From Leptolyngbyaceae cyanobacterium (GTDB lineage Bacteria; Cyanobacteriota; Cyanobacteriia; Phormidesmidales; Phormidesmidaceae), in NCBI GenBank assembly GCA_965263355.1, contig CBDHHL010000056.1:1920001-1984000 (forward strand): a DNA stretch of 64,000 bases, written 5' to 3'. Positions within the stretch are counted from its first letter, which is position 1, and the number at the start of each line of letters is the position of its first letter. The position numbers and the translations under genes were made by a program. Under the pieces are notes generated by a model. It saw nothing but the letters and a program-made list of their open reading frames with translations, searched no databases and was not told the DNA's origin. Below are positions 29,455 to 32,932 of the stretch, one piece after another.

Positions 29455-30444
29455 CTAAGACTCAATCGTTGAGGATTTCTCAAACGCTTTTATGGTTAGG
29501 GTGTGAGACTGCTGCATCGCCTCTTGCAATTGGACATTAACACTTTCAATTTGCTGAGTTTGTTCTTGAATTTTCTGTTCCAGGGATTGAATGGTAAATT
29601 CATAGCCCTGTTTAGTCGCTTCCCATTCTTTCTCTAGTAATGCCGCTTGTACCTCTGCATTTTGCTGCACAGAACTAGCGGACTCTTCTCTCGTTTCGTC
29701 TACTAACTGGTTAAGGTCAGCTGCGAAGACATCCACCTGCTGTTGATAGCCTTCTAAGAGAGACTGATTCTCTTCTAGAATTCTCTCCCGCTCTGTCCAC
29801 TGCCGCTCGTTGGCTTGTCTGGTATCTTGCAACTCTTTTTCTTGCTGCCGACGGGTCTCATCAAACTCATTAGCATCAATGGTTTGTTTTCGATCAAGTT
29901 CATACTGACAATCTGCTTCTTGCCGCTCGCGTTCTTTGGTTAACCGCTCTGTTTGTTCCTGTAAGGTTTGCTCAAAGTCGGCTTGCTCTTTGGTCCAGTG
30001 AGATCGCACCTCAACCATTTCTTTGTCCAGGGCTGCTTTCTGCTCAGCCTCTGTTTGCTCAAGGTTACTAAGCTTGTCCTGGTGCTCTTTGGTCAGCAGA
30101 TAAAGGGTATCAGCCACCACACGAATTTGTTTCAGGGTTTGTAGATGACGCGTTTCAATGTCAATCGCCTGATCCAGTTCTACCAGCTTCAAGGATTCGG
30201 CAGTTAATTTTTCTGATAGCTGAGTGACAATGCTACCAAACTCCAGCTGTAAGTCGGCCAACCCTTTAACAATACCGTCAATGGTATAGCCGGAAGCCAC
30301 GTTTAATACCTGTTCATTTCTGGCAGCTACGGCTTCCTCTTCTTTAGTGGCAATCCGTGATCCCAGCTTTTTTCGCTCAGTGAGAATTTGCTCAAAGGCA
30401 GCAAAAACCTGGTCCTTGCTATCCCGCGATGCAACCATCCCCAT
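29455..30444 (-). CDS. Coiled-coil-rich protein A (paralog of B)
   Basis: Shares FGS.V..LSEKLT, W.KEQ, W.ERE, L..KA.E motifs with B; GGAG SD before ATG 30444. Confidence 0.85.
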   Translation of the reverse strand: MGMVASRDSKDQVFAAFEQILTERKKLGSRIATKEEEAVAARNEQVLNVASGYTIDGIVKGLADLQLEFGSIVTQLSEKLTAESLKLVELDQAIDIETRHLQTLKQIRVVADTLYLLTKEHQDKLSNLEQTEAEQKAALDKEMVEVRSHWTKEQADFEQTLQEQTERLTKERERQEADCQYELDRKQTIDANEFDETRRQQEKELQDTRQANERQWTERERILEENQSLLEGYQQQVDVFAADLNQLVDETREESASSVQQNAEVQAALLEKEWEATKQGYEFTIQSLEQKIQEQTQQIESVNVQLQEAMQQSHTLTIKAFEKSSTIES

Positions 30445-30571
30445 CACTCCAGCAGACACATCAACAGGGCAATTCTGCCACCTATAAGTCAATAAAGTAA
30501 CAGCCCCTGATTAAACTTAATCCTTGGTCAGAGGTCTGCCTCAAGAGTATTCAGCATAGTAGTGAATGTGG

Positions 30572-30897: not shown

Positions 30898-31116
30898 CTA
30901 GTCAGTCGAAGGATCATCGGCATAAATCATCAAATCACCAGGCTGACACCTTAACGCTTTGCACAACGCACTGAGCGTCTCAGCATCAATCCGACTTACC
31001 TGACGACGAACTTTCAACCTTGAAATTGAGCGCTCACTGATACCCGTGAGTGCGGCCAGATCCTTATTACGGACATTCCTTTCCGCCATGATGATTGCGA
31101 GTCGCCAATGGATCAC
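30898..31116 (-). CDS. XRE/Cro-family HTH transcriptional regulator (HTH_26-like)
   Basis: LAIIMAER...LAALTGIS...ISRL...LCKALRCQPGDL. Confidence 0.88.
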   Translation of the reverse strand: MIHWRLAIIMAERNVRNKDLAALTGISERSISRLKVRRQVSRIDAETLSALCKALRCQPGDLMIYADDPSTD

Positions 31117-31254
31117 GTCTAGCGATTGATACGTATTGCCAAGCAGATGCTAGCACCAACCCACAGATGTAGTTCACAAATACAGCCTTGACATCTAAAA
31201 ATAGACGCTAGCAGTTGTTTTTACTCCTTTCAAAAGCTATAGTTACTAAAAATA

Positions 31255-31283
31255 AGCTGGCTTCCAACCAATGGAAGCCAGCT
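31255..31283 (-). terminator. Rho-independent terminator of tRNA-Arg
   Basis: AGCTGGCTTCCA-ACCAA-TGGAAGCCAGCT, followed on the minus strand by a T-rich run. Confidence 0.8.
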
Positions 31284-31346
31284 AAAGGATAGTGCTTTGA
31301 TCATTTGAACGGGACTGGCGCGATTCGAACGCGCGACCTACCGCTT

Positions 31347-32038
31347 CAGATTTGTGTGAGTTTCCCCACTCTCTGGACTATACCTTCACCTTGGGCAAAT
31401 GCCTTTAGGTGGTAGCCGTCTAGTCTCTACACCTTCTTAGCCATCGATGCTTAATCAACAGCACTCAGCCGTCAATTATTACATTGTCCACTTGACTGAG
31501 CTTGGCTCGGTATTGCCATGAAGTGTCGCTACTGCGGTCAGCTAACAACCAATCCAATGTTTTGCAATCGCTCTTGTGCAGCATCTTTTAACAATAAGAA
31601 AGTGCCGAAAAAACGCAAACAACAAAAGTACTGTAAACATTGTAGAGTCCCAGTCTTCGGTAGACGAACTACCTGTGATAACTGCAACCCATCGTATGTA
31701 GATTGGACGAAAGTTACCCTAGGAGAAGTTAAACAAAAAGCATCTTTTCAGTATTCTGCAAGAGTCAGACAGCTTGCTCGAAAGCTTTACCGTCAGTCAC
31801 ACAAACCACAAGAATGCCTAATTTGCAGCTACGACAAGCATTTTGAAGTTTGCCATAGACGAGCAATCAATGAGTTTCCTGATGATGCTTTCATCGCAGA
31901 AGTCAATGACTTAGACAATCTGGTTGCTCTTTGTCCCAATCACCATTGGGAACTTGACCACAATCACCTCACTTTTTAGGTTTCACCGACTTTGACTACA
32001 TTCACACGCGAGGTTTCCCCACACGGTGCCCGATATTC
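31347..32038 (-). ncRNA. Group I self-splicing intron (IC3-like, Azoarcus type), 692 nt
   Basis: Exon ends in U, P1 CCU/GA-AUA-UC-GGG with U.G at the splice site; GUCAAAGUCGGUGAAACC, GGCAAUACCGAGCCAAGC, GAAGGUGUAGAGACUAGACGG, GGUGAAGGUAUAGUCCA, GAAA tetraloops in P2/P9, terminal omega-G at 31347. Confidence 0.95.
31518..31979 (+). CDS. Intron-encoded Zn-finger HNH endonuclease (putative homing endonuclease), antisense to intron
   Basis: CxxC..CxxxC and CxxC..CxxC N-terminal motifs; CLIC...EVCH...NDLDNLVALCPNHH HNH core; wholly inside the intron. Confidence 0.85.
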   Translation: MKCRYCGQLTTNPMFCNRSCAASFNNKKVPKKRKQQKYCKHCRVPVFGRRTTCDNCNPSYVDWTKVTLGEVKQKASFQYSARVRQLARKLYRQSHKPQECLICSYDKHFEVCHRRAINEFPDDAFIAEVNDLDNLVALCPNHHWELDHNHLTF

Positions 32039-32158
32039 AGGAGGCGGTTGCTCTATCCAGCTGAGCTACAGCCCCAAAGCTGGTCTATATAAACATACAC
32101 TTTATAGCCCGTCCGTAAGGATGCCGTCAGTAAATTCCGCAACATGGCGGAATGAAGC

Positions 32159-32932
32159 TTAGTTTTCTACCCAGCGGGGCACATACTTCCAACCATTCTT
32201 AAGAATTTTGCGATAAGGCTCAAAACCAGGCATCTTTTCACCCACTAGCTGCCAAAACGCCTTGGAATGGTTCATATGGACCGTATGACACAGTTCATGC
32301 ACCAGAACGTAGTGCACCACTTCTTTAGGTAAAAACAGCAGCTTGTAGTTCAGACTAATGTTTTTACTACTAGAACAACTGGCCCAGCGCGTTTTCTGTC
32401 CCCGTACCGACGGTCGCTTAAACGGTAGTTCCAGGTCAAAGCTCAGCTGTCGTAGCCAGGGCACTAATTCCCGATGTGCCTTATGACCTAACCACTCACA
32501 CAGCACCTGATTACAGATAGACACCTGGTCAACATGACCCCGCACCTTTAATCCATGCCCCGGCAATGGAATACACAGGGTAGGCCCCTGATCAGCCTCA
32601 TAACTGACCTGCCAAATTTCGCTGGGGTCAGTTTGGGCTAGGGGAGCTTGCCAGCGCAGTTCAAGTTTTTCTGGTTTTATGGTCTGCCAATCATTGGCCG
32701 TATCCCGATGTTCACTTAGCAGCTGAGCCCGATTTTTTAGAATCCAATCGCGACGTTTGGCAATTAGCTCCGGTAACTTATTGCAGTTATACCGGGGCGG
32801 GACCACCACCTCCACACTGCCATCCACGGCGATTTTGATCGACACATGTTTTGCCCGCTTGCTTTGACGGACAGTGTAATCAAATTCGTTTGATAAGGGG
32901 GCGGATGGTGGAAACAGCTCTAACTGCACCAT
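32159..32932 (-). CDS. YgjP/SprT-like (DUF45) zinc metallopeptidase
   Basis: QKTRWASCS, YVLVHELCH, NHSKAFW. Confidence 0.92.
   Translation of the reverse strand: MVQLELFPPSAPLSNEFDYTVRQSKRAKHVSIKIAVDGSVEVVVPPRYNCNKLPELIAKRRDWILKNRAQLLSEHRDTANDWQTIKPEKLELRWQAPLAQTDPSEIWQVSYEADQGPTLCIPLPGHGLKVRGHVDQVSICNQVLCEWLGHKAHRELVPWLRQLSFDLELPFKRPSVRGQKTRWASCSSSKNISLNYKLLFLPKEVVHYVLVHELCHTVHMNHSKAFWQLVGEKMPGFEPYRKILKNGWKYVPRWVEN

Follow-up and report, generated by a model that had tools for sequence, protein, structure and literature searches.

We analyzed a stretch of 64,000 nucleotides (nt), here called the window, from contig CBDHHL010000056.1 of assembly GCA_965263355.1 (Leptolyngbyaceae cyanobacterium). 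It contains a tRNA-Arg(CCU) gene at positions 32075-31310 of the minus strand that is interrupted behind anticodon position 36 by an intron of 692 nt, and this intron carries on its opposite strand an open reading frame (ORF) for a predicted HNH endonuclease. The 5' exon (32039-32075, minus strand) provides the acceptor strand, the D arm, the 5' strand of the anticodon stem, and the anticodon loop down to CCU. The 3' exon (31310-31346, minus strand), which starts with AAGCGGU, provides A37 and A38, the 3' strand of the anticodon stem, the variable loop, the T arm, the acceptor strand, and the discriminator G; CCA is absent from the gene. Between tRNA positions 36 and 37 lies the intron (31347-32038, minus strand), which we assigned to group I, subgroup IC3, on the basis of RF00028, a covariance model of our own (R1), covariation, and ARAGORN. 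It begins with GAAUAUCGGG and ends with AAAUCUG, the last base of which is the omega-G at 31347. Joining the exons by script resulted in a canonical tRNA-Arg(cct) cloverleaf, and ARAGORN run with its intron option reported the same tRNA-Arg(cct) with a 692-nt intron. Under default settings ARAGORN called no tRNA in the whole window, and Rfam at its gathering score found no family in it. The original prediction had given the same boundaries for gene and intron, leaving the minus strand unmentioned, and had stated that removal of the insert restores a complete tRNA that standard annotation could miss. These points were borne out, including the proposed check by ARAGORN with introns and the failure of standard annotation, as seen with default ARAGORN and with Rfam at its gathering score. 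Its reading of the insert as an intron was right, and the 153-amino-acid plus-strand ORF inside it was overlooked. The codon AGG accounts for 52 of the 13,947 codons in the 35 longest ORFs of the window.

The ribozyme was identified by several approaches. (i) With permissive thresholds, the Rfam model RF00028 matched the insert over its full length (model positions 1-253) with 37.3 bits and an E value of 1.4e-7. Relative to the model, about 460-480 nt are inserted in the P5 loop, and the score is lowered because this large L5 insert is costly. The same model, at an E value of ≤0.001, gave no match in genome G001, from which locus L024 derives, despite the tRNA-Arg(CCU) intron mapped there; the Rfam model is thus weak on bacterial IC3 tRNA introns. 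(ii) The covariance model R1 covers the 3' domain (P7, P3', P8, and P9) and was built from 11 of 89 distinct segments, namely, those of 10 tRNA-CAU introns and 1 tRNA-Arg(UCU) intron, none of which was cyanobacterial or ORF bearing. It found a single match in the window, at 31341-31434 on the minus strand, with 94 bits and a roughly calibrated E value of about 6e-24. (iii) We aligned 24 tRNA-Arg introns, comprising that of the window, 15 ORF-bearing introns from metagenomes, and 8 ORF-less introns from genomes, and evaluated 47 base pairs taken from the window sequence in the anticodon stem, P1, P2, P3, P4, P5, P7, P8, and P9. In this alignment 1,018 of 1,113 cells (91.5%) were paired, versus 29.9 to 45.7% when the 3' partner was slid by 1 to 3 columns, and compensatory (two-sided) changes were present in 34 of the 47 pairs, versus 12 to 23 in the slid controls.

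All core helices are intact in the window and consistent with the co-varying consensus; they are located on the minus strand as follows. The internal guide GGG (32029-32031) forms a 3-bp P1 with anticodon CCU, with U32039.G32031 as the pair at the splice site. Across the 24 tRNA-Arg(CCU/UCU) introns, this U.G pair and a C-G pair were each found in 24 of 24, whereas the third pair was C-G in 13 and U.G in 11. Since the guide GGG can pair with either CCU or UCU, P1 is formed with the anticodon itself. P2 (32007-32025) is a hairpin with a GAAA loop that showed compensatory changes in 7 of 7 pairs; 16 to 19 of the 24 sequences were paired there, the alignment being partly off register. The 5' strand of P3 (31994-31999) has its partner at 31412-31417 (22 to 24 of 24 paired, compensatory changes in 6 of 6 pairs), and that of P4 (31984-31989) has its partner at 31507-31512 (19 to 24 of 24 paired). 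The two halves of P5 read CAUGG and CCUAA, which we take to be the receptor for the GAAA loop of L9 in Azoarcus-type introns. The P6 region (31437-31501) is enlarged to 65 nt, with two predicted hairpins; the comparison of lengths gave 43 to 68 nt in 14 of 16 ORF-bearing introns versus 13 to 26 nt in 8 of 8 ORF-less introns. The segment at 31412-31430 contains J6/7, the 5' strand of P7 (31422-31427, with a bulged A), and the 3' strand of P3 (31412-31417), and carries the core sequence GUAGAGACUAGACGG, as supported by covariation and R1. The same two sources define the P8 hairpin (31387-31411). The 3' strand of P7, AGUCC (31375-31379), is invariant, was aligned by R1, and includes the G-C pair of the presumed guanosine site; P7 as a whole is invariant and was paired in 24 of 24 introns. 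The P9 hairpin (31356-31369), with a GAAA loop, is followed by ACAAAUCUG up to the omega-G; 18 to 24 of 24 sequences were paired in it, 4 of 5 pairs showed compensatory changes, and R1 covers it as well. The U.G splice pair and the omega-G (G31347) cited in the original prediction are therefore present, as are both core strings it had quoted (31430-31416 and 31387-31374). Its assignment to the group I introns of the Azoarcus (IC3) kind also agrees with the core fold, the covariation, and the R1 score, the likeness being to tRNA-CAU introns as a class. The covariance-model search that it had suggested gave a score below the gathering score with RF00028 and the 94 bits of R1.

For comparison, contigs of species-representative genomes were scanned for an exact 15-nt core motif, which returned at least 116 loci (L001 to L116). 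In the majority of these listed loci, ARAGORN with introns recognized an interrupted tRNA, among them Leu(taa) in at least 53, Met/Ile(cat) in at least 13, Arg(cct) in at least 5, and Arg(tct) in at least 3, along with others. No cyanobacterial locus was among the at least 116 motif matches listed. As a side observation, the interrupted tRNA genes among the matches listed are spread over many phyla. ARAGORN also returned Phe, Ser, Thr, Cys, and Ile(gat) hosts among these loci, of which some calls may be off by 1 or 2 bases; such hosts are in line with the many new classes of Williams 2020 (bioRxiv 10.1101/2020.01.27.920355).

A tree of the ribozyme core was calculated from a short alignment of 32 rows and 183 columns. 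The window intron groups with those of loci L117 and L118 (support 94/85, not starred) and is surrounded by tRNA-Arg(UCU) and tRNA-CAU introns. A well-supported clade (96/98) unites the ORF-less tRNA-Arg(CCU) introns of proteobacteria with tRNA-Leu introns and with a second CCU type that bears an ORF. Forcing the window cluster together with the proteobacterial CCU introns changed the log likelihood by -44 units, with a P value of 0.011 in the approximately unbiased (AU) test, and forcing all CCU introns together gave an AU P value of 0.0098; in both cases the groups were named after the tree had been seen, and the alignment is short. Membership in the proteobacterial tRNA-Arg(CCU) clade was rejected on this basis (AU P value of 0.011, post hoc grouping, 183 columns). 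The 3' end of the window intron, a short P9 followed by ACAAAUCUG, equals that of tRNA-CAU introns. Judged by its sequence, the core is nearer to the tRNA-CAU (Azoarcus-type) and tRNA-Arg(UCU) introns than to the proteobacterial tRNA-Arg(CCU) introns, and the intron phylogeny proposed in the original prediction thus places the window among the former.

Two known types of intron are closest in kind. The group I intron found within the tRNA-Ile(CAU) gene of Azoarcus sp. BH72, of subgroup IC3, was reportedly described by Reinhold-Hurek and Shub in 1992. It shares with the window intron the IC3 architecture, the insertion after the third anticodon base, the 3-bp P1 with the anticodon, the GAAA loops L2 and L9, and a short P9 followed by ACAAA.C.G. 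It differs in its host tRNA, Ile(CAU) versus Arg(CCU), and in its length of about 200 nt versus 692 nt here; the window intron is longer because its P5 holds a gene and its P6 is enlarged. The likeness to the Azoarcus intron itself is a likeness to its class, represented by tRNA-CAU introns of other bacteria and the 94 bits of R1. The proteobacterial (Agrobacterium-type) tRNA-Arg(CCU) introns, said to have been reported by Reinhold-Hurek and Shub in 1992 and by Paquin et al. in 1999, are represented in our set by L013, L024, L040, L100, and L105 and correspond to the class "Arg.5Ug" of Williams 2020. They share with the window the gene, the insertion site, the GGG guide, and the IC3 core and differ in that they are ORF-less, measure 235 to 252 nt, and have a P9 region of 43 to 53 nt versus 28 nt in the window. 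Crystal structures of the Azoarcus intron are cited in the accessible part of a review (PMC3984707).

The gene for the 153-amino-acid HNH protein (31518-31979, plus strand) lies in the P5 extension, antisense to the intron, as supported by the ORF, Pfam, homologues, and the predicted structure. Its start codon ATG (31518-31520), which is CAU of CAUGG in the intron sense, abuts the 3' strand of P5 (31516-31517). Its stop codon TAG (31977-31979), which is CUA of CCUAA in the intron sense, overlaps the 5' strand of P5 (CCUA). The gene therefore fills the P5 extension exactly, and the CAUGG and CCUAA halves, read from the opposite strand, supply AUG and UAG in the right order. Residues 100 to 153 matched the Pfam family HNH_2 (PF13391) with 20.5 bits and an E value of 4.5e-4, the cut-off being 21, and precomputed PF13391 assignments exist for most homologues. 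A search of 5.8 billion proteins yielded 94 candidates, of which 92 reached an E value of ≤1e-3 and are homologues, with identities down to 31%; many are exactly 153 to 155 amino acids long and 60 to 96% identical. When the window protein was aligned with 29 of the 92 matches (A1), the invariant residues were C3, C6, C16, C20, C39, C42, C53, C56, C103, H113, N130, N134, C139, and H143. Eight N-terminal cysteines, invariant or nearly so, form two zinc ribbons of the type CxxC...C..C, and the HNH residues C112-H113, N130, N134, and C139-P-N-H142-H143-W-E are conserved to the same degree. The AlphaFold model of the protein has a predicted local distance difference test (pLDDT) score of 90.1 and shows a strand-strand-helix arrangement at residues 110 to 147. 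The best among the weak fold matches were all HNH enzymes, namely, EcoKMcrA (E value of 4e-2) and SciA of phage T5 (E value of 0.16), and also TagI and Cap5. That the 153-codon frame is a chance antisense ORF in a long structured loop would be in keeping with the Pfam score just below the cut-off. We regard such a coincidence as next to impossible, since the fold is predicted with confidence and several homologues bear the name HNH endonuclease in public sources; it is refuted by the 92 homologues, which keep the eight zinc-ribbon cysteines and the HNH residues down to 31% identity.

The same arrangement recurs at other loci. We retrieved, with their flanks, the best 80 of 499 metagenome loci and the best 80 of 227 viral-contig loci encoding relatives of the protein and mapped introns with ARAGORN in intron mode, checking the calls for a paired anticodon stem and an omega-G. 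The HNH gene lay inside a tRNA-Arg intron in 17 of the 80 metagenome loci, with the tRNA on the opposite strand in 17 of 17 and on the same strand in none. Nine of these introns are in CCU genes (L117, L118, L136, L137, L173, L183, L191, L192, and L193) and eight in UCU genes (L119, L120, L126, L140, L143, L145, L157, and L166). R1 recognized a core in 20 of the 80 metagenome loci, which were the 17 mapped loci and L167, L182, and L164; all 20 matches were on the strand opposite to HNH, 55 to 190 nt upstream of its start. Four of the 80 viral loci had R1 matches, and in none of the 4 was the HNH gene enclosed. Of 15 evaluable ORF-bearing introns, 13 have a start codon close to the first CxxC; it lies at the 3' strand of P5 in 13 of 13 and in exactly the window position in 7. 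L126 was not picked up by the motif search. The stop codon coincides with CCUA of the 5' strand of P5 in 11 of 15 ORF-bearing introns. A second ORF-bearing tRNA-Arg(CCU) type comprises L173, L183, L191, L192, and L193 (also L167 and L182) and has a long P9 like that of the proteobacterial ORF-less introns. As this long-P9 type shows the same placement of HNH, the antisense arrangement occurs in two intron lineages.

Most relatives are free-standing genes. A tRNA was present within 400 nt of HNH in 59 of the 80 viral loci and in 45 of the 63 metagenome loci without an ARAGORN-mapped intron, and among the neighbors of free-standing HNH genes Arg(tct) was the commonest (39), ahead of Met/Ile(cat) (27), Lys(ttt) (16), and Arg(cct) (14). 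An intact opposite-strand tRNA-Arg(UCU) gene overlaps the HNH start at seven loci; the association with tRNA genes was noted at L121, L123, L124, and L197 to L200, among other loci. Alternatively, the ribozyme might be functional while the HNH protein is a selfish or phage-derived nuclease that lodged in a tolerant P5 loop and either has another target or is inactive. The prevalence, in contigs of phages and metagenomes, of relatives that stand free next to an intact tRNA gene and the interleaving of intron-borne and free-standing forms in the protein tree speak for this explanation, which we nevertheless judge unlikely. The most frequent neighbor of the free-standing forms, tRNA-Arg(UCU), and also tRNA-Arg(CCU) are the very genes that the intron-borne forms interrupt, and two intron types as well as two tRNA-Arg isoacceptors share the antisense placement with codons at P5. 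Free-standing relatives beside the same tRNA-Arg genes thus fit a nuclease family aimed at tRNA-Arg genes.

Taken together, we consider it very probable that the window contains a native tRNA-Arg(CCU) gene of a Leptolyngbya-like cyanobacterium with a probably self-splicing IC3 intron and an antisense HNH gene that likely encodes a homing endonuclease. The exons, their boundaries, and the co-varying ribozyme fold are direct observations, from which we infer splicing. The precursor tRNA would most likely splice itself: anticodon CCU and guide GGG would form P1, and the anticodon stem would hold the exons together. Exogenous guanosine would attack after U32039, the omega-G at 31347 would then occupy the site in P7, and ligation of the exons would release a 74-nt tRNA to which CCA is added afterwards. 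The conserved protein and its fixed antisense arrangement across many loci are likewise observed; its nuclease activity, its target, and the transcription of its gene are what we infer. Most likely it acts as a homing endonuclease that would cut intron-less tRNA-Arg genes near the anticodon loop, with repair copying the intron in.

A number of observations weigh against this reading. (i) The RF00028 score is below the gathering score of 50, and the HNH_2 score falls short of its cut-off by a small margin. (ii) No solved structure matched the protein at an E value of ≤0.001, by either fold or sequence. (iii) A consensus promoter scan found no promoter for the antisense gene inside the intron, the sole weak site (31173-31202, plus strand) being outside it; -10 boxes were present upstream of 4 of 15 ORFs, with 4.8 expected, and none was present in the window. 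(iv) In L117 and L120 no start codon is found at the conserved place, and some copies of the nuclease gene may thus be decaying. (v) Four of the 22 listed sequencing runs were compared with the window, and in these 4 runs there was no exon-exon contig with the flanks of the window and no RNA evidence of splicing at this locus. (vi) Run X1, the probable source run, contains an intron-less tRNA-Arg(CCU)-like 5' half followed by a 3' half with a different T arm. With regard to expression, a promoter within the enlarged P6 is our guess; as separate observations, the four -10 box matches cluster at -54 to -44 (a post hoc finding), and a TGnTATAAT motif in L126 was spotted by eye. In L117 (2501-2962; protein 76% identical), ATA stands in place of the conserved start, and a protein begun at the next in-frame start would have 125 amino acids and lack the first zinc ribbon.

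In the RNA-library run X18, one contig has 31346 directly next to 32039 and is identical to the window over 38 bases on either side of this junction; since its flanks are unlike those of the window, it represents an intron-less allele or transcript of another organism and not splicing at this locus. Runs X17, X18, and X4 contain ORF-less relatives with the same core, in which 31437-31499 and 31518-31976 are each replaced by 14 to 17 nt, with 15 to 17 nt standing in for the P6 stretch. A common core has therefore either gained or lost the ORF and the long P6. A 572-nt contig of about 93% identity in the RNA run X17 says nothing on strand or transcription. The intron-less contig of X1 has 1,274 nt, matches the window at 32039-32071, and has a depth of 5.5 versus 10.6; it could represent a second gene copy or a companion organism, and the split gene may consequently not be the only decoder of AGG. 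Together with the four runs that gave no RNA evidence of splicing in this organism, this half at about half the depth favors a fossil intron that no longer splices, in which case the split gene would be a pseudogene and AGG would be read by an intron-less CCU copy or by tRNA-Arg(UCU). We hold this to be quite improbable, as the core helices are intact and match the co-varying consensus, R1 scores 94 bits, the exons form a perfect cloverleaf, and the locus and its terminator are conserved.

That the split gene is resident in a Leptolyngbya-like cyanobacterium is supported by its named relatives and by synteny. At the 90% level, the window protein clusters with proteins assigned by name to Leptothoe kymatousa and Adonisia turfae. 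In other close clusters the names are those of Leptolyngbya boryana with related strains and of Fischerella thermalis, and single homologues are named from Chroococcidiopsis, Planktothrix or Aerosakkonema, and Pelatocladus, in both cases at the protein level only. We examined the DNA context of two loci. At L117, the flanking proteins share 90% clusters with proteins of Phormidesmis and Leptolyngbya foveolarum; at L118, the flank is the tocopherol cyclase of the L. boryana group, in which the corresponding accessions are adjacent to those of the HNH protein. Strains of L. boryana seem to possess this element as well. Upstream of the tRNA, the window contains a gene for a YgjP-like metallopeptidase (32159-32932, minus strand) that is syntenic in L117 with 59% identity and on the same strand as the tRNA. 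An intrinsic-terminator-like hairpin of 12 pairs with a T run (31255-31283, minus strand) lies 27 nt past the 3' end of the tRNA. The named flanks and the synteny place the intron in a resident tRNA-Arg(CCU) gene, at a syntenic position, in at least three Leptolyngbya-like lineages. Farther downstream of the tRNA we noted a 72-amino-acid Cro/C1-type helix-turn-helix protein (30898-31116, minus strand; HTH_26, E value of 3e-19) and a 345-amino-acid protein rich in glutamate and glutamine (29455-30492, minus strand) that matches no Pfam family.

The cyanobacterial host named in the original prediction is thus in agreement with the cluster mates from Leptothoe and Adonisia and the flanks from Phormidesmis, L. 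foveolarum, and the L. boryana group. The horizontal acquisition that it also proposed is plausible, because the endonuclease gene is intact, intron-less alleles with identical exons occur in other samples, and the tree sets the window intron apart from the proteobacterial CCU introns. However, presence at a syntenic native locus in three Leptolyngbya-like lineages fits vertical descent too.

Related systems differ from this arrangement in different respects. The tRNA-fMet intron of Synechocystis PCC 6803 reportedly encodes the endonuclease I-Ssp6803I (Bonocora and Shub, in 2001), an enzyme of another nuclease family than the HNH protein here, with its gene on the sense strand. Both are cyanobacterial tRNA group I introns with an endonuclease of their own aimed at the anticodon region; the tRNA is a different one. 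Antisense genes for His-Cys box endonucleases in nuclear rDNA group I introns are said to have been described by Haugen et al. in 2004. These introns have in common with the window intron an endonuclease gene opposite to the intron RNA strand and differ in residing in eukaryotic rRNA genes and in their nuclease family and intron subgroups. The HNH nickases of phage T5 are free-standing endonucleases in phage tRNA gene clusters. A free-standing homing endonuclease, SegB, is reported from a phage T4 tRNA gene cluster in the accessible part of PMC13096335. Like most relatives of the window protein, these phage nucleases have genes beside tRNA genes; they are located outside introns, and SegB is a GIY-YIG enzyme.

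Published surveys provide a further frame for these data. Williams 2020 (bioRxiv 10.1101/2020.01.27.920355) mapped 5,292 tRNA introns, with the highest frequency in cyanobacteria, listed "Arg.5Ug" as one of four classical classes, and pointed out that introns above ~400 bp may hold genes; the main text is silent on the strand of intron genes. Cyanobacterial tRNA-Arg introns may already have been counted, without comment, in that survey. In their accessible parts, reviews of 2014 (PMC3984707) and 2025 (PMC12702839) mention neither cyanobacterial tRNA-Arg introns nor antisense genes, and the former cites the study of the Synechocystis PCC 6803 tRNA-fMet intron by Bonocora and Shub (2001). The "group I introns" of cyanobacterial tRNA-Arg(ACG), Gly, and Lys in the accessible part of PMC5733544 measure 22 to 49 nt and are thus far too short for ribozymes. 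According to its authors, tRNAscan-SE 2.0 was not designed for group I introns (PMC8450103, accessible part). In the freely accessible literature we found no description of a cyanobacterial tRNA-Arg gene with a true group I intron or of a bacterial tRNA intron with an antisense HNH gene; nor did the literature searched describe, for any bacterial group I intron, an antisense endonuclease gene with its ends in a ribozyme helix. The tRNA-Arg(CCU) intron reported here extends a classical class to a new group of hosts; its antisense HNH gene is a more unusual feature than the intron itself.

A number of implications can be derived from these data. (i) Neither default ARAGORN nor Rfam at its gathering score sees this required tRNA gene. 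As default tools miss the split gene, genomes of Leptolyngbya-like and other cyanobacteria will seem to be without tRNA-Arg(CCU) and list an orphan "HNH endonuclease." (ii) The nearness of the core to tRNA-CAU and tRNA-Arg(UCU) introns, with a GGG guide that suits both CCU and UCU, bears on the movement of introns between tRNA genes. (iii) An antisense gene with its ends in P5 raises the questions of how it is expressed and of whether antisense pairing affects splicing. Tentatively, and with more doubt than confidence, the data can be read jointly as an undescribed lineage of tRNA-Arg (CCU/UCU) introns in multiple phyla, in which HNH is fixed in antisense and takes its start and stop codons from the strands of P5. 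Ribozyme and nuclease gene would in that case be co-adapted. The nuclease gene would have a transcript of its own, perhaps initiated in the enlarged P6 and uncoupled from transcription of the tRNA, and this mRNA, being complementary to the intron of the precursor tRNA, could throttle splicing and the supply of the AGG decoder. (iv) With the same nuclease family standing free beside tRNA-Arg genes in phages, the system would offer a worked example of the passage from a free-standing nuclease to a mobile intron.

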